DNA from: a virus
Taxonomy: Duplodnaviria > Caudoviricetes
DNA length: 41,112 nucleotides
IMG/VR virus record: IMGVR_UViG_3300038556_000051
Span: 1 to 41,112 of that record
Reading direction: 5' to 3' (one strand)
Positions 236-38,068 of this stretch are shown here, in pieces (within the stretch, counting starts at the first letter, position 1; every line of letters starts with the position of its first letter). The notes under the pieces were generated by a model. It was not told the origin of the DNA. It saw nothing but the letters and a program-made list of their open reading frames with translations, and made no database searches. Position numbers and translations under genes: made by a program.

Positions 236-826
236 TCACTCCGCCGGCGTGGGACGGGAGTTTGGAGACCCAGCCTTAGGTGCGCCTTCCGAGAGCTGCA
301 GCCGCTCGGTGAAATAGTACAGCCCCAGCATGGTAGCGACTATCACATGAGCTACCCAGAACGTCACCCCGAACAGGATCGCACTGCGCACATAAGGCAG
401 CAGGTCGCCGCGCAAAAGCGATTTGGCGCCGGGAGCAAGAGCGTTCCCGATCATCACTAGGATCACCAGCGCGAACGACGAGAACGACAGATATCCGAAC
501 AAGTAAGCCAGAAACCTGCGGCGGCTGAGGCCTTCGACCTCACCCGTCATCCGGGGCGGAGACTGACCGCCCACCTTGTTTGAAAGAGTGTTGGAGCGAT
601 CGGTGGTTATCAGCGTCAAGGCCGCGACGAAAAATCCTCCGAGGATGGCAAGTGGGTTCTGCAGCTGCGCCAAGAGCCCTTCTTTCCCGAACGCGGCCCC
701 GAAATCGGGCCACAGTAGTGACAGAGCGACGGTCGCGGAGGCGCCAAGTGCTGGCAGGACGATGTTGTATCGCCACCAGAAGCGGTGGCGAATCGCCAAA
801 AACCGCAGCGGGGCAAGCAGCGTCAC
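236..826 (-). CDS. 4-TM membrane protein, putative anti-phage effector (RexB-like role)
   Basis: GTG at 826 preceded by SD GGAAGGGA; 196 aa with four hydrophobic helices; starts 23 nt after the stop of 850..1818. Confidence 0.75.
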   Translation of the reverse strand: MTLLAPLRFLAIRHRFWWRYNIVLPALGASATVALSLLWPDFGAAFGKEGLLAQLQNPLAILGGFFVAALTLITTDRSNTLSNKVGGQSPPRMTGEVEGLSRRRFLAYLFGYLSFSSFALVILVMIGNALAPGAKSLLRGDLLPYVRSAILFGVTFWVAHVIVATMLGLYYFTERLQLSEGAPKAGSPNSRPTPAE

Positions 827-849
827 AGATTCCCTTCCGTTGAGAGCAC

Positions 850-1818
850 TCAGGATGGAGCGAGCAGGCTTCCCATCTCCGTTATCATATCGTCCCGGAG
901 CTGCTCGACACAATCGTTCATCACCGATCCGAGCTCGATAATGTACCGCTTGGCGAAAAGCGTCTCGCCGATATCGTCGTTCATCACGTCGATCTTCGCC
1001 CGGTTCGGCACCTCTCGGCTGGTGAGCTCGGCCGACTTGGGTCGGTGCCACTCCACATACATCTCCTCGAACTCGTGCTGCCGCGCGAACGTCTGCACTG
1101 CCCGTATGACGTCGGTCGCTCTTTGGCCGATCGGAACGCTCACCTTCAGACGCATCTCGCGGCGCTTGATCTGGGCGAATGGCGGCGGGTCGAACCGGTT
1201 CTCAGCTATCCGAGCCTGGACAAGCCGCACGGAGCCAAGCTGGCTCCCCTCATCCAGTTCCGCTTTGAGACGTTCGTTTGCGACCACGCTCAGCTCGACC
1301 CGTGGAAGCGCTTTTCTCTCGTTCCCGTCTATATCTATGACCGGAATCTCTTTGTCGCGGAAAACGGTTCGAAGCTGCCGCTGCAGCTCTGGGCGGATCC
1401 TGCTCTGGCCGAGGCCGGTGACTTTCTCGAGGAGTGCTCGGTAGACCCGGCCTCGTGGACTGGCGGGCTCGAGGTTGAACAGAAGATGCGCGGATACAGC
1501 TCGTGCCTCATCATCGCCCTTCCCAAAATGGCGCACCTTCCGCGTTTGTAAGTGGATCAGCGACGCATCGGATGCATCCGGGTCGCCGAACTGAAAGAGG
1601 AGTGCCAGGGCTTTCGCGCCAGAGGGCAGGCGTACAATACGACCATCGGTGATCTGCATCAGAAAACGCTCTGACTCGATCCGATTTACGGCAAGGCCGT
1701 CCTTCACCCGCTCAAGAAGATACCTAGCGATCTCTTCCATCGGGACCGTCTCGCCAGCTGGATTGGTATCGAAGGCGAGGTCGAAGCGAACCACCTCGCG
1801 CTGTTTGGATTGCTGCAT
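850..1818 (-). CDS. Soluble 322-aa protein, putative defence sensor (RexA/DUF4747-like architecture, inferred)
   Basis: Long globular-looking ORF with visibly lower GC than the phage core; operon with the 4-TM gene. Confidence 0.7.
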   Translation of the reverse strand: MQQSKQREVVRFDLAFDTNPAGETVPMEEIARYLLERVKDGLAVNRIESERFLMQITDGRIVRLPSGAKALALLFQFGDPDASDASLIHLQTRKVRHFGKGDDEARAVSAHLLFNLEPASPRGRVYRALLEKVTGLGQSRIRPELQRQLRTVFRDKEIPVIDIDGNERKALPRVELSVVANERLKAELDEGSQLGSVRLVQARIAENRFDPPPFAQIKRREMRLKVSVPIGQRATDVIRAVQTFARQHEFEEMYVEWHRPKSAELTSREVPNRAKIDVMNDDIGETLFAKRYIIELGSVMNDCVEQLRDDMITEMGSLLAPS

Positions 1819-9687: not shown

Positions 9688-9908
9688 CGCGATGTGTCCT
9701 TTGCAGGCGCGTCGATCAGCTCGAGCAGCGCGGAGATCTTCGGGTCCTCGGGCGGCGTCGCGATCGACGAGAGCGCCTCTGCGGTCGCCTCGAACGCGTC
9801 CCGGACCGCGCGGGGTTTGCGGACGCCATTGACCGCGAGGCCGACCGAGGCGGCCAGCGACAGGGTTGCCACTCCGGTCAGGACGAGCTGCGCGTCATTG
9901 CTCAGCAT
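9684..9908 (-). CDS. Single-TM small protein in lysis cassette
   Basis: 74 aa with an N-terminal TM; ATGA coupling to the endolysin. Confidence 0.55.
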   Translation of the reverse strand: MLSNDAQLVLTGVATLSLAASVGLAVNGVRKPRAVRDAFEATAEALSSIATPPEDPKISALLELIDAPAKDTSR

Positions 9909-10254
9909 GTTGCGCTCCCTTGAGGTTTATCCGGTTCCGCACGACGGTCTCGAGCGCGTGCACGAAGAAGGCGAAGCCGAGCGCGCCGCTCGCGAGCGCC
10001 GCGATCACCGCGGCCACAGGCGACAGCCACCCTTGCGCGACCGCGAGCACGGACAAGGTCGCGAACATCGGCAGGGCGGCGAACTCGGAGGCGACCAGCC
10101 ACCGGCGCTTGCGCTGCCAGAGCTTCACCGCCTGCGGATCCGGCGGCGGCTCGATCGTGACGACCCCCAACAGGTAGACGATGCGCGCCACGAAGGCGGA
10201 GAGGGCGGCGCCATAGGCGAGCACCCAGAGAACCGCCGCTTCGCGGTTGGTCAT
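9895..10254 (-). CDS. Putative holin (3 TM)
   Basis: ATG at 10254 with GGGGGA SD; three hydrophobic helices and a basic C-terminus; upstream of the endolysin. Confidence 0.65.
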   Translation of the reverse strand: MTNREAAVLWVLAYGAALSAFVARIVYLLGVVTIEPPPDPQAVKLWQRKRRWLVASEFAALPMFATLSVLAVAQGWLSPVAAVIAALASGALGFAFFVHALETVVRNRINLKGAQHAEQ

Positions 10255-10282
10255 GGCGATCGTCCCCCGTCGAGGTGAGCGG

Positions 10283-35096: not shown

Positions 35097-35600
35097 TCAG
35101 CTCGTGTCGCTCCGCACGCCCGCGCGGGTCTCGATGGCTGTCAGCAGCGCGACCGCGACGCTGACCAGTTCGCGCGCGTCGGGGATCACCCCAAGCGCCT
35201 CGGCGCGGTCGACGTCCTGGTCGTCGGACAGCGCGGCACCCAGGCGCGCCATGACCTCGCCGGCTTCCTTGGCCAGCGATGCGAGCTGGCGGCCCCATTC
35301 GGTCTCGAGCGCCTCGACGGGCGGCAGCTGGAACAGGTCGAAGCCTTGCCGCCGCGCCAGGGCGCGCGTGACATGCGGCCAACCCGGCGCGCCGTGGCCG
35401 TGCTCTTCGATGGTTGCGACCAGGTCGATCGGCGCGAAGCAGCTCGTGTTCTTCGAGCCCCAGTCCGAAAAGCTCGACTGCGCGCGCCGGGTGATCTCGG
35501 TCAGGTAGACCTGCCCGCCGGCGGCCTTCATCGCCGCGGCCGTGGCGATCTTCAGGTCGAGCTGCTCGGGCGGCAGCCGGCGATCGCGCGCGGTGGTCAC
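35097..35600 (-). CDS. CII-like phage regulatory protein
   Basis: AAGG...R..S.FSDW, FAPID.VA..E...G.PHVT.ALA, KE.GEV pattern; position in the PR operon. Confidence 0.7.
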   Translation of the reverse strand: MTTARDRRLPPEQLDLKIATAAAMKAAGGQVYLTEITRRAQSSFSDWGSKNTSCFAPIDLVATIEEHGHGAPGWPHVTRALARRQGFDLFQLPPVEALETEWGRQLASLAKEAGEVMARLGAALSDDQDVDRAEALGVIPDARELVSVAVALLTAIETRAGVRSDTS

Positions 35601-36028
35601 GGCTGCGCTCCGGCTTGCGTCGCGTCCGCCGTGGAGTCACTCTCGATCAGACGGAGGGGCGGCCAGCCATGGGCATCAAAACTAGCGGCCACGTGGCCAT
35701 CACGGGTGATTGCGGCCACCAGTTCGAGATATCGTTCGTTGGGCTGGACGATCAGACCGATCTGGTTTGCCCCGCCTGCGGCGCGATCAGTCACCTCGAT
35801 GCGGATCAGGTCGGCCGGATCAACGATCAGCTCCAGGGTCGCGTCGAAGCCTTCCGCACGAAACAGGTCCGGAAGTTCTTCGGCGGCCAGCTCTCGAAGA
35901 TCACGCGACGCACAAAGCGCATCAAGTATCGTCGTAAATGACGAGCAGGCCATCTCTACAGCGGCCTGAACGTCTGCCGCGTCCAGTTCGACATGGATGC
36001 GGCCGACCTTCACCCCGGCGCTGGTCAT
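35597..36028 (-). CDS. 143-aa ORF, antisense partner of the Zn-ribbon gene
   Basis: AGGAGG SD; ATGA overlap upstream and GTGA overlap with cII; acidic, protein-like sequence. Confidence 0.55.
   Translation of the reverse strand: MTSAGVKVGRIHVELDAADVQAAVEMACSSFTTILDALCASRDLRELAAEELPDLFRAEGFDATLELIVDPADLIRIEVTDRAAGGANQIGLIVQPNERYLELVAAITRDGHVAASFDAHGWPPLRLIESDSTADATQAGAQP
35669..35941 (+). CDS. Zn-ribbon basic protein, nested antisense
   Basis: GGAGGGG SD; CGH...CPACG; K/R-rich C-terminus; 90 aa. Confidence 0.7.
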   Translation: MGIKTSGHVAITGDCGHQFEISFVGLDDQTDLVCPACGAISHLDADQVGRINDQLQGRVEAFRTKQVRKFFGGQLSKITRRTKRIKYRRK

Positions 36029-36438
36029 CGCACGCCCTCCTGCTTGCGAGCGGAACGGGCCGCGACCATGAGCGCTTTCCACAACCACGAAGGGCTGAGG
36101 TGATGATAGCGAACCTCGACGATCGAAAACCGAGAGTGGAGGAGCACACCGGCGGCGTAGCCGTATGGGTGCCGCTTGAGAACGGGGCGCATGGGTTTCA
36201 CCTGCCGCCCGACACCGCTATCTCGGCCGCCATCGATATGCTGTTCGTTGCCACGCGATTGAAGATTGGCGTTCGCGGCTCGCCATTGGCGCTTGAACTC
36301 AGTCCAGCCCAGTTGGACGATCTGACGAACAGCCTTCGCGAACTCCGCCGCCGGATCGGCCCGGAACTCCCGGACCATGATCGGCCCGGGCTCGCCCACG
36401 ACGGTGACGAGGCGAGCTGACTGTAGCTCGGGGCTCAT
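36025..36438 (-). CDS. 137-aa bridging ORF
   Basis: ATGA overlaps at both ends and GGGAG SD, but shadow-like sequence. Confidence 0.35.
   Translation of the reverse strand: MSPELQSARLVTVVGEPGPIMVREFRADPAAEFAKAVRQIVQLGWTEFKRQWRAANANLQSRGNEQHIDGGRDSGVGRQVKPMRPVLKRHPYGYAAGVLLHSRFSIVEVRYHHLSPSWLWKALMVAARSARKQEGVR
36103..36420 (+). CDS. Hypothetical protein, paralogue A (nested antisense)
   Basis: 105 aa; aligns with 36528..36914 (GVAVWV, HG..LPP.TA, VRG.P.A.ELSPAQL). Confidence 0.75.
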   Translation: MIANLDDRKPRVEEHTGGVAVWVPLENGAHGFHLPPDTAISAAIDMLFVATRLKIGVRGSPLALELSPAQLDDLTNSLRELRRRIGPELPDHDRPGLAHDGDEAS

Positions 36439-36950
36439 TCCCAGGCTCCCTGCCTGACGTTCAGCGCTTGCGGCTCACCGACGACCTTCGCATGAAGAGC
36501 GCCTGGAGAATCGAGGGGCCGAAGCGAATGATTGCGTATGTCGACGAGGGCAGCCCGAAGGTGGAGATCGACGCGCTGGGCGTCGCCGTCTGGGTGAACG
36601 ATGACGGCGCAGATCCGCACGGCTTGATGCTGCCGCCCCCGACCGCCCTCGAGACCGCGCTCCGCATGATCGGCACCGTTGCCGAGCTCGACGACACGCT
36701 GGTGATCCGTCCGGAGGCGGTCAGCTTCGACGTCGGCCTGGTCGGCCCCGAGCTCGAGACTGCGTTCCGGGTGATGTTCTCCGTTCGAGGTGCCCCCTTT
36801 GCGATCGAGCTGAGTCCGGCGCAGCTTGAGGGCCTGATTGACGGGCTGCAGAAGCTCAGCCGGTGCGTCGATCCGAAGGTGCCGGGCAGGGTTGATAGAG
36901 CGCGCCGCGACTGACGCGAGCGCTCGGCTCAACTCGGGAATCGCAGTCAT
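36435..36950 (-). CDS. 171-aa bridging ORF
   Basis: ATG overlaps the cro stop and TGA overlaps the next ATG; shadow-like sequence. Confidence 0.35.
   Translation of the reverse strand: MTAIPELSRALASVAARSINPARHLRIDAPAELLQPVNQALKLRRTQLDRKGGTSNGEHHPERSLELGADQADVEADRLRTDHQRVVELGNGADHAERGLEGGRGRQHQAVRICAVIVHPDGDAQRVDLHLRAALVDIRNHSLRPLDSPGALHAKVVGEPQALNVRQGAWE
36528..36914 (+). CDS. Hypothetical protein, paralogue B (nested antisense)
   Basis: 128 aa; GAGGGG SD; synonymous-site divergence from paralogue A. Confidence 0.75.
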   Translation: MIAYVDEGSPKVEIDALGVAVWVNDDGADPHGLMLPPPTALETALRMIGTVAELDDTLVIRPEAVSFDVGLVGPELETAFRVMFSVRGAPFAIELSPAQLEGLIDGLQKLSRCVDPKVPGRVDRARRD

Positions 36951-37225
36951 GCCGCTGCTCCGATAGAATCGATCGATGTATCGGGAGACAGCGCCTCATC
37001 CGCGCCGTTAAGCGACGCGATATGATCGGCGTCTCGCTCCGCACGGAACTGATCCATGAAGGCGATGACGCGGTTGACACGTCCCAGCGTCGGCGACATC
37101 CCGCCACGAAGCCGCGTGACGAAGGCGGGCTCGTTCGCAGCCTCTCGGCCGAAACGAGTGGGCGCCATCCCAGTATCCAACAGGAACTGGTCGATGCGCT
37201 CGATGAGGTCGGCTTCTGTGATCAT
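36947..37225 (-). CDS. cro: Cro-like repressor
   Basis: LIERIDQFL..TGMAPTRFGREA.NEP.FV.RLR.G.SPTL; divergent from cI. Confidence 0.85.
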   Translation of the reverse strand: MITEADLIERIDQFLLDTGMAPTRFGREAANEPAFVTRLRGGMSPTLGRVNRVIAFMDQFRAERDADHIASLNGADEALSPDTSIDSIGAAA

Positions 37226-37236
37226 CTCGACGATGC

Positions 37237-37317
37237 TGTTAGCGGACGCAAACATAGCGATCAAGTTGCTTTGTTAGCGATGGATGAAAATGACGTAGCT
37301 GTTCGCATGTGCGAAAT
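37237..37317. promoter_or_regulatory. OR-like operators and PR promoter
   Basis: 18-bp TGTTAGC-GGAC-GCAAACA (37237), TGTTAGC half-site (37272), TGTTCGC-ATGT-GCGAAAT (37300); - strand TTGATC-N17-TAACAG. Confidence 0.7.
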
Positions 37318-37327
37318 AGCGAACGCT

Positions 37328-38068
37328 ATGGCGAGCCCCGAAGAAGAGCCTCTGCTCTATCGAAAGCTGATGGCAGTGAAGCCGATCGGCATGACGCCGA
37401 ACCGGTGGCTGACCGAAGCGGGCGTCAACAGGAGCTTCTTTACGACCCTACGATCCAGGGGGAACGCCAACTGGCAGACGGTTGAGAAGCTGCTGAGTGT
37501 GGCTGGCCTGACTCCTGACCAGTTCGGTTCGATGCAGGCGCCTGGGACAGACCGTAGCTCGATCGAAGACGAAGGTGCGGCGAAGCAGCTTCCCTTCCTT
37601 CGCGACGACGAGGAGAGACGAGACATCCCCATGCTCGGAACCGCCTTGGGTGCCGACTTTGAGGTTAGCGACGACGGAACGCCTCAGTTCGCCGAAGTCA
37701 CGGATTTGCATCTCGACGAGGTGGTGGACCACCTCCGTCGGCCTGTTTCGTTAAGAAATCGCCCGCACCTGTACGGGCTCAGTGTCGTTGGCGCATCTAT
37801 GTCGCCTAGGTTCGAACCGGGAGACCCCGCCTACATCGATCCCAAGGCGACACCTCGTATCGGCGATGATGTCGTCGTGTATCTTCGGAAGCCGGAGGGC
37901 GACGAGGGCGAGAGGGTGTTCTCCGTCCTGCTGAAACGATTAGTCAAGCGGTCCGCCGCCTTTGTGGAGCTTGAGCAGTTCAACCCTCCTATCGCCTTCC
38001 GGCTGGATACGAAGTGCATCGCGCGCATCGATCGTGTCATTCCGTGGCGCGAGATCGCAATCTTTTGA
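37328..38068 (+). CDS. cI: CI-like repressor with S24 autopeptidase domain
   Basis: N-terminal HTH; catalytic G.SMSPRF..GD and LKRL; start assigned to ATG 37328. Confidence 0.9.
   Translation: MASPEEEPLLYRKLMAVKPIGMTPNRWLTEAGVNRSFFTTLRSRGNANWQTVEKLLSVAGLTPDQFGSMQAPGTDRSSIEDEGAAKQLPFLRDDEERRDIPMLGTALGADFEVSDDGTPQFAEVTDLHLDEVVDHLRRPVSLRNRPHLYGLSVVGASMSPRFEPGDPAYIDPKATPRIGDDVVVYLRKPEGDEGERVFSVLLKRLVKRSAAFVELEQFNPPIAFRLDTKCIARIDRVIPWREIAIF

Follow-up and report, generated by a model that had tools for sequence, protein, structure and literature searches.

Introduction

A moron is an inserted gene that sits between conserved genes and brings a promoter and a terminator of its own. The interlinked genes of the lambda nin region and of P1 immI icd form overlapping stop/start chains in which translation would protect downstream expression. 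Translation shields a transcript from Rho.

The closest published case to the locus described here is olg1/gene 10 of the Pseudomonas phage Fc02, where, according to the accessible part of the report, gene 10 of the early operon has nested opposite it an antisense gene driven from a separate promoter, pC1, the pC1 transcript reads toward the repressor, and both strands (olg1/olg2 and gene 10) have exclusion activity when supplied from plasmids (PMC9936078). For coliphage 186, the accessible account describes a CII site with two-turn spacing, similar to that of the repeat described below, and translated polymerases that survive collisions at a ratio of 93:7 (PMC6593788). In-register antisense frames are open in GC-rich DNA, and some are translated and selected; shadow ORFs and antisense overlapping genes are the subject of PMC3454372 and PMC8850804.

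Here we describe the interval between cro and cII in the window, by which we mean the whole stretch of 41,112 nucleotides analysed, an entire 41-kb virus record. The junction that couples cro to cII is a hotspot for the insertion of self-contained genes that point backward (“cargo,” C1–C3, + strand), each enclosed in a forward open reading frame (“bridge,” B1–B3, − strand) that is coupled to its neighbors.

Results

The coupled chain and its empty allele

Profile matches in the window identified cI (S24 peptidase), cII (phrog_101), a primase-helicase and a serine recombinase. The cII product also matches PF06892 at an E value of 5e-4, which is below the curated cut-off, and 9 of 14 homologue matches carry this family. 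In named genomes, 21/22 cII homologues are from Sphingomonadales, and on this taxonomy the host is probably a sphingomonad. The cro gene, without a Pfam or PHROG match, was assigned from its position and from a “croB” profile built in this analysis, which has 33 matches upstream of cII; its likely start is at 37225, with the frame open to 37264. A 160-kb contig (L134) is identical to the window across 8.5 kb, so that no polymorphism was obtainable there.

On the minus strand the order is cro (stop at 36947), B1, B2, B3 and cII, joined by four exact 4-nt stop/start overlaps: ATGA at 36947–50, 36435–38 and 36025–28, and GTGA at 35597–600. The motif GGAG lies 7–8 nt upstream of all four forward starts (B1, B2, B3, and cII), a spacing found at 9 of the 251 minus-strand RTGA sites in the window, and the Shine–Dalgarno (SD) sequence of the cII start is predicted to be paired. 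C1, C2 and C3 are nested in B1, B2 and B3 in codon register (offset 0), each cassette consisting of a + strand cargo gene with its own SD and a forward frame that runs from SD-ATGA to SD-(A/G)TGA. A preliminary description had reported these reading frames, their in-register nesting and the four overlaps, and all were found where it had placed them; SD motifs, which it claimed for most junctions, are in fact present at every one. It had further argued that such exact abutment is not expected of shadow ORFs. On its own, the chain in the window has a null probability of 0.013–0.06 when flanks are shuffled or phase is randomised, and of 0.24–0.26 under resampling of the cargo codons, and is unlikely only to a moderate degree; across related phages, chains lie far above chance (see below).

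Table 1. Features of the cro–cII region, with positions in the window.
Feature	Position	Strand	Description
cII-like activator, probably of CP76/phage 186 type	35097..35600	-	167 aa; phrog_101 E 1e-10
Bridge B3	35597..36028	-	143 aa; ATGA and GTGA overlaps; may itself fold as a protein
Insertion at cro/cII coupling junction	35601..36950	.	1350 bp; absent from L001
Likely sigma70 promoter of C3	35614..35643	+	TTGCGT, 17 nt, CACTCT
Cargo C3	35669..35941	+	90 aa; zinc-ribbon (CxH...CxxC) protein
Bridge B2	36025..36438	-	137 aa; ATGA overlap at each end; non-conserved product
Possible C2 promoter	36043..36072	+	CTTGCGA, 17 nt, CATGAG; 30 nt before start; without -7T
Cargo C2	36103..36420	+	105 aa; C1 paralogue with internal deletion
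Bridge B1	36435..36950	-	171 aa; ATGA overlap at each end; non-conserved product
Possible C1 promoter	36467..36496	+	CTTGCGG, 17 nt, CATGAA; 31 nt before start; without -7T
Cargo C1	36528..36914	+	128 aa; two beta3-alpha units
cro-like gene	36947..37225	-	divergent from cI; tail non-conserved
Inverted repeat CCGATA-N13-TATCGG, likely CII operator	36960..36984	+	in cro tail
cI-like repressor, S24 peptidase	37280..38068	+	PF00717 E 1e-5, phrog_4 E 7e-12; start codon approximate

In the close relative L001, whose cro is 69% identical, cro overlaps cII directly through a GTGA, and both flanks are 76–79% identical to the window. The native junction is recreated at each end of the insertion, and twice more inside it, GGAG...(A/G)TGA being common to all of the junctions. 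Since either end of a cassette restores the native junction, further cassettes can be stacked onto it; the window has three.

Census of related cro–cII intervals

We gathered 162 loci by cII homology, leaving out two at contig starts and genome matches already included; together with the window these gave 135 non-redundant loci, in 120 of which cro could be located. As at the insertion site of a moron, relatives lack the insertion at the same site: not only L001 but 59 of the 120 intervals are empty, while 61 are filled. Nearly all of the empty ones are coupled at −4/−1 (54/59), and four more have a one-base gap. Antisense cargo was found in 31 filled intervals (34 genes, picked by eye after the chains had been seen), and in 20 of these 31 loci the cargo is supported by homology between loci or by a Pfam match.

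A chain was called strict if every junction was at −4/−1, and loose if gaps of 0 and +1 were also allowed. A complete chain from cro to cII is present in 18 of the 31 cargo loci by the strict rule, where 5.8 are expected with shuffled flanks, 6.1 with randomised phase and 3.0 with both, and in 24 by the loose rule, where the corresponding expectations are 7.3, 7.8 and 4.0. The excess over the flank-shuffle and phase nulls has P<=1.5e-8, calculated over 31 cargo loci of which the related ones share ancestry. Resampling of the cargo codons alone, the codon-shuffled control that the preliminary description had asked of related intervals, gives higher expectations (11.1 strict and 14.5 loose; P 8e-5 and 5e-6), and it counts against the relay reading that most of the 18 strict chains would arise under this null by itself. 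The homology-backed loci have 12/20 strict chains against 1.8–4.3 expected, and with one locus per family a mean of 7.3 of 9 are chained (P median 6e-5, worst 0.002). The modular arrangement first described for the window recurs across related cro–cII intervals.

Openness of an antisense frame is by itself uninformative: such a frame is present in 107/130 cII control blocks. Frames that span the gene or block and are also coupled on either side occur for 20/34 cargo genes, for 2/120 cro genes and for 21/130 cII blocks, the comparisons of cargo with the two controls giving P values of 4e-14 and 2e-6. Codons that would create a stop in the bridge are missing from the 13 cassettes in which the cro-coupled start is in register (0 observed, 4.1 expected), and occur 3 times against 3.4 expected in the 8 others. 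In L003, L033, L038 and L102 the bridge runs in a different frame, which argues that openness is kept rather than the peptide. A codon score was unable to separate sense from in-register antisense.

The preliminary description had asked whether cargo always keeps a coupled open frame; such frames are kept above chance, and two loci, L013 and L016, carry cargo and have no chain by any rule that we tried. When overlaps of −8/−11 are allowed as well, outside the rules that were compared with null models, five of the seven remaining cargo loci are also chained. Among filled intervals without antisense cargo, 16/30 have no loose chain, including 6 of the 11 “croD” loci, with gaps of 150–320 nt; together with L013 and L016, these show that continuous translation is not required in every lineage.

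Coding strand of cargo and bridges

Identity by codon position in the cargo frame is 0.575/0.64/0.43 over 1606 codon pairs, and protein constraint therefore sits on the cargo strand. This pattern among homologues, together with the AF2 model of C1 (pLDDT 91.6), bears out the earlier view that the antisense cargo genes are real. C1 and C2 share 38% identity (E 1e-15), and their family profile has 85 matches. The best fold match of C1 is a COMM domain (Z 6.6, rmsd 2.2, 60 aligned residues), a weak match that covers one half only, followed by equally weak similarity to Pur-alpha/PC4 (Z 4–5); Foldseek gave no match for C1 at E<=0.001, and a structure-atlas search only unnamed clusters, under 0.9. 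C3 matches Pfam Zn_ribbon_8 (E 1e-4) and, weakly, PADLOC PDC-M14A (E 9e-5), and has homologues in L070, L126, L163 and L169–L173. No curated-level family was found in Pfam, PHROG, NCBIfam or PADLOC for any of B1–B3 and C1–C3.

Bridges of the C1/C2 family, aligned on the bridge, have only 20% identity and unrelated ends. For B1 and B2 it is probably the act of translation that matters rather than the product. B3 differs. Its family has 38 database matches, most of 98 or 127–155 aa, with a shared N-terminal strand-helix pattern that lies partly outside the overlap; in the B3/C3 overlap, amino-acid identity is equal on the two strands (0.33/0.33); and B3-like paralogues without a zinc-ribbon partner occur in L170–L172. 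An AF2 model built on 24 sequences reached a pLDDT of 78.4, while the single-sequence atlas model was poor (pLDDT 0.45), the viral and PDB Foldseek searches gave no match to the B3 fold, and the structure-atlas search gave nothing usable. There is an about even chance that B3 is a working protein as well as a bridge. Some other bridges begin with a D5 winged-helix-like domain, as in L003 (E 0.003). The paralogy of C1 and C2 and the possible standing of B3 as a protein in its own right go beyond the preliminary description.

In a search from the cargo side, where position could introduce no bias, the C1-family profile matched 3/401 genomes, in all three just upstream of the cII match, one of them new (L127), while the C3 profile gave 6 matches in 5/401 genomes plus 3 viral loci; a word search of viral contigs found no C1 relatives. 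Seven new switch-like loci resulted (L127, L163, and L169–L173, of which L170–L172 are close kin), and in all seven a bridge is joined at both ends, four by the strict rule and three through a +1 gap or a −8 overlap. L174, a weak match without switch context, is not bridged, and in the phage L164 the cargo/bridge pair follows cII and is coupled only at its 5′ end. The forward ORF of L164 resembles Pseudomonas proteins. L165 was rejected as a C3 relative, its match being to an unrelated zinc ribbon.

Cargo promoters and the putative CII operator

Upstream of the cargo genes we found a common motif, CTTG.. / 16–18 nt / GCTA..GT, 29–39 nt before the start in 27/31 training loci. The resulting matrix scores 10.6–19.2 bits at 33–36 nt in all seven of the unseen bridged loci, 5.3 bits in L164 and 1.5 in L174, and reaches 8 bits in 2/54 empty cro tails; the 95th percentile in random stretches of the window is 6.1 bits. 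When the window is kept out of the training set, the C3 promoter scores 10.5 bits (0/200 shuffles as high), whereas the scores of the C1 and C2 candidates are not significant, being equalled in 79% and 16% of shuffles, respectively. In the accessible part of a study of Novosphingobium, the -7T is absent from over 80% of sigma70 promoters (PMC8407463). The cargo genes are thus predicted to carry their own sigma70-like promoter inside the tail of the bridge, with significance in the window for C3 only; transcription would then begin near 35650, 36079 and 36503 on the + strand. An E. coli-type promoter scan of the window found nothing, and is little informative for this host. A search of the + strand from the cargo genes to cI yielded no intrinsic terminator; hairpins without a U-tail follow the cargo stops.

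The inverted repeat in the cro tail is the sole match of its pattern in the window and is kept in L001, with half-site centers 19 bp apart. Empty cro tails hold such a repeat as well, and its type tracks the cII clade: among the 23 loci whose cII is closest, 8 have the CGATA/GGTAA type; at intermediate distance it is GGAAA; and of the 15 that are most distant, 7 have CCGGAC. On the strength of this conservation, the repeat is likely the operator at which CII activates a pE-like promoter directed toward cI, whose −10 element would lie near 37009–37014 and whose CII-dependent start near 37021. Other repeats of 6–7 bp are also present in the interval.

The preliminary description had the cargo riding a PRE-like establishment transcript toward cI. 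An establishment transcript that began at the repeat would leave out C1, C2 and C3, all of which lie upstream of it; with the likely CII site in the cro tail and a promoter motif shared by the cargo genes in the bridge tails, that proposal finds no support.

Discussion

The empty allele, the excess of chains, the constraint on the cargo strand and the common promoter motif are the observed part of what we regard as the best explanation. Beyond them we infer a relay: the forward frames are probably kept so that ribosomes can follow RNA polymerase unbroken from cro to cII. In a lysogen, the cargo would be transcribed from its own promoters, with transcripts that perhaps read on toward cI, as from pC1 in Fc02. 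Upon infection or induction, the early transcript would have to cross 1.35 kb of opposing promoters; as a translated transcript it could resist Rho and win head-on collisions with the cargo promoters, and the coupled relay would deliver ribosomes to the cII start, after which CII would act at its likely operator within cro. The benefits for Rho resistance, for collisions and for cII initiation cannot be separated in these data. In empty intervals the native cro tail seems to follow the same principle, since it is not conserved and yet crosses the CII site in a frame that is coupled in nearly every case.

Among other readings, true dual coding would have the forward ORFs kept for working proteins, on the model of Fc02 gene 10 opposite olg1, with coupling merely the way in which they are expressed. 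B3 carries this reading, through the size of its family and the N-terminal pattern partly outside the overlap, the equal identity on both strands, its AF2 pLDDT of 78 and the paralogues without a zinc-ribbon partner, and the D5-like start of bridges such as that of L003 points the same way. Against this, bridges of the B1/B2 family are barely alignable and have unrelated ends, the cargo strand is favored in the other families, and the frame of the bridges varies between loci. Even for B3, the conserved C-terminus mirrors the SD and promoter of the cargo, the third-position pattern of its tails is also seen in other families and may be an alignment artefact, and the covariation used by AF2 may be a mirror image of that in C3, the model from a single sequence being poor. 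As a general account we therefore consider dual coding unlikely; it is unlikely for B1 and B2, and plausible for B3, where we see the case as evenly balanced. A different possibility is inheritance without ongoing selection, in which recombination at the SD-ATGA microhomology, or landing in short ORFs that already exist, preserves phase, while the frame stays open through the codon use of GC-rich DNA. The GGAG...(A/G)TGA at every junction, the in-register frames open in most control blocks and the common ancestry of family members are what it would predict. The phase is kept, however, despite differences in flank length within families whose cargo proteins are mostly 25–60% identical, most chains are broken by flank shuffles, and the pattern is found in at least seven cargo families plus singletons, which leaves inheritance alone improbable.

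Promoterless cargo carried on a CII-activated, PRE-like transcript from the start of cII would agree with L021, L029 and L033, in which the tail holding the CII site adjoins cII, upstream of the cargo, with the weak scores of the C1 and C2 promoters, and with the lack of an intrinsic + strand terminator found between cargo and cI. In the window, however, the clade-typical repeat is found only in the cro tail, and across loci the cargo genes share a promoter motif at a fixed distance that only 2/54 empty tails have, so that we hold this reading to be very improbable. Chance shadow ORFs in GC-rich DNA are more improbable still. Open antisense frames are indeed common, and the probability in the window alone rises to 0.06, or to 0.25 with codon resampling, but the cross-locus excess and both control comparisons, with cro genes and with cII blocks, are far from chance, SD motifs are present at both internal junctions, and the ends of shadow ORFs should be unrelated to neighboring starts and stops, whereas the ends of the bridges coincide with them. 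The shadow-ORF reading is largely refuted.

Returning to the relay, it may represent a general, stackable format, in which a promoter and an antisense cargo gene sit in a relay ORF that copies the SD-ATGA junction. Unrelated genes would be plugged into the cro–cII overlap, expressed in the lysogen, perhaps feeding cI by read-through, and silenced on induction by collisions, with relays such as B3 having become folded proteins. We put this wider proposal forward tentatively, at somewhat less than an even chance. If true, the format also breeds overlapping genes. The relay itself, if true, would mean that open reading frames can be kept for being translated and not for their product, and would explain how genes are added inside a tightly coupled phage switch. 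Annotation has overlooked the cargo hotspot: protein databases contain B3 and not C3. With its empty and filled alleles, and with stops that can be introduced on one strand without changing the protein on the other, this natural locus allows direct tests of Rho polarity, of collisions between polymerases and of the birth of genes by overprinting.

Morons, translational coupling and shadow ORFs each account for a part of this arrangement. Like morons, the cassettes place accessory genes between two conserved ones, each with its own SD and, across the families and for C3 in the window, a promoter motif, and an empty allele exists; unlike morons, they sit inside the 4-nt overlap of a switch, are wrapped in a coupled forward ORF and have no intrinsic terminator that we could find. 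The ORFs of lambda nin and P1 immI icd do not span antisense genes, and models of shadow ORFs predict no SD-bearing starts with coupling at both ends. With coliphage 186 apl–cII–pE, as far as its accessible account goes, the locus has in common an inverted repeat of about two helical turns at the cro/cII boundary, a CII that is probably of the CP76 type, and predicted convergent promoters where the translated polymerase would be favored; that account describes no cargo, and in the window the likely operator lies within the part of cro that is translated, 1.35 kb from cII (PMC6593788). Searches of the accessible literature found no published polymorphic, stackable coupled-bridge cassette.

The likeness to Fc02 is the closest: nested antisense ORFs right after a cro-like gene (ner in Fc02), on a lysogenic strand directed toward the repressor, are found in the window as well. 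The accessible part of the Fc02 report concerns a single conserved locus of a transposable phage, with two functional proteins, and describes no coupling, polarity or stacking. The system in the window, by comparison, has a polymorphic site, unrelated cargo families, stacking, and bridges whose products are mostly not conserved; what is new here is the empty allele, the controlled census, the cargo promoter, the position of the CII site and the exception formed by B3.

Cargo and forward ORFs in related loci

Among the loci compared with the window, most of them gathered by cII homology, L038 has a BssS-like antisense cargo gene in the interval between cro and cII (see table). On the forward strand, a D5 winged-helix-like domain begins ORFs in L003, L013, L016, and L102, and in L003 this ORF runs on as the bridge, that is, the coupled forward ORF across the cargo gene. 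In L040, the place directly upstream of cII is taken by a Rha-family gene.

Features in the window and in related loci
Feature	Position	Strand	Evidence or remark
BssS-like antisense cargo, cro–cII interval	L038:3667–3912	-	PF13991, E 6e-5
Forward ORF, D5 winged-helix-like domain at start	L003:3346–3978		domain match, E 0.003
Rha-family gene with primase-like C-terminal part	L040:3222–4004		coupled to cII
C3/B3-like antiparallel pair, after cII	L164:2992–3294		TGATG coupling at start of pair
Two adjacent genes matching candidate defence system PDC-M53	window 236–1707	-	matches to B (E 1e-27) and A (E 5e-11)
ORF opposite small membrane genes of lysis region	window 9829–10278	+	cargo-type promoter match

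Cargo promoter surroundings and intervals without cargo

Many cargo promoters (the shared sigma70-like motif upstream of cargo starts) have a −35 box that, judged by eye, is enclosed by a GC-rich inverted repeat. This repeat adjoins the SD that serves the forward gene downstream and was seen upstream of cargo in L025, L033, L038, L041, L089, L101, and L102. The cro tails of L026 and L066 lack cargo, yet finish in the same hairpin/promoter-like stretch, and are perhaps remnants of lost cassettes. One cro type (L079, L081–L083, L086, L103, and L105) has a spacer of 150–310 nt before cII. This spacer is alike in several of the loci, in many cases contains no coupled ORF, and could be an operator region or encode a regulatory RNA. 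Within the window, a cargo-type promoter match of 10.7 bits at 9919 accompanies the + strand ORF of the lysis region, a coincidence that may be due to chance.

The source label of one locus, L051, may be wrong: it is titled Bordetella, but a match at the same coordinates was also drawn from the genus around a Sphingomonas genome.

Pairs resembling B3 and C3

The zinc-ribbon cargo gene of the window (C3) and its opposing bridge (B3) have counterparts elsewhere. In L170–L172, the C3-like cassette is adjoined by a second, tandem B3-like ORF, open on both strands and without a zinc-ribbon partner. The phage of L164, where a C3/B3-like pair follows cII, has a forward ORF similar to Pseudomonas proteins.
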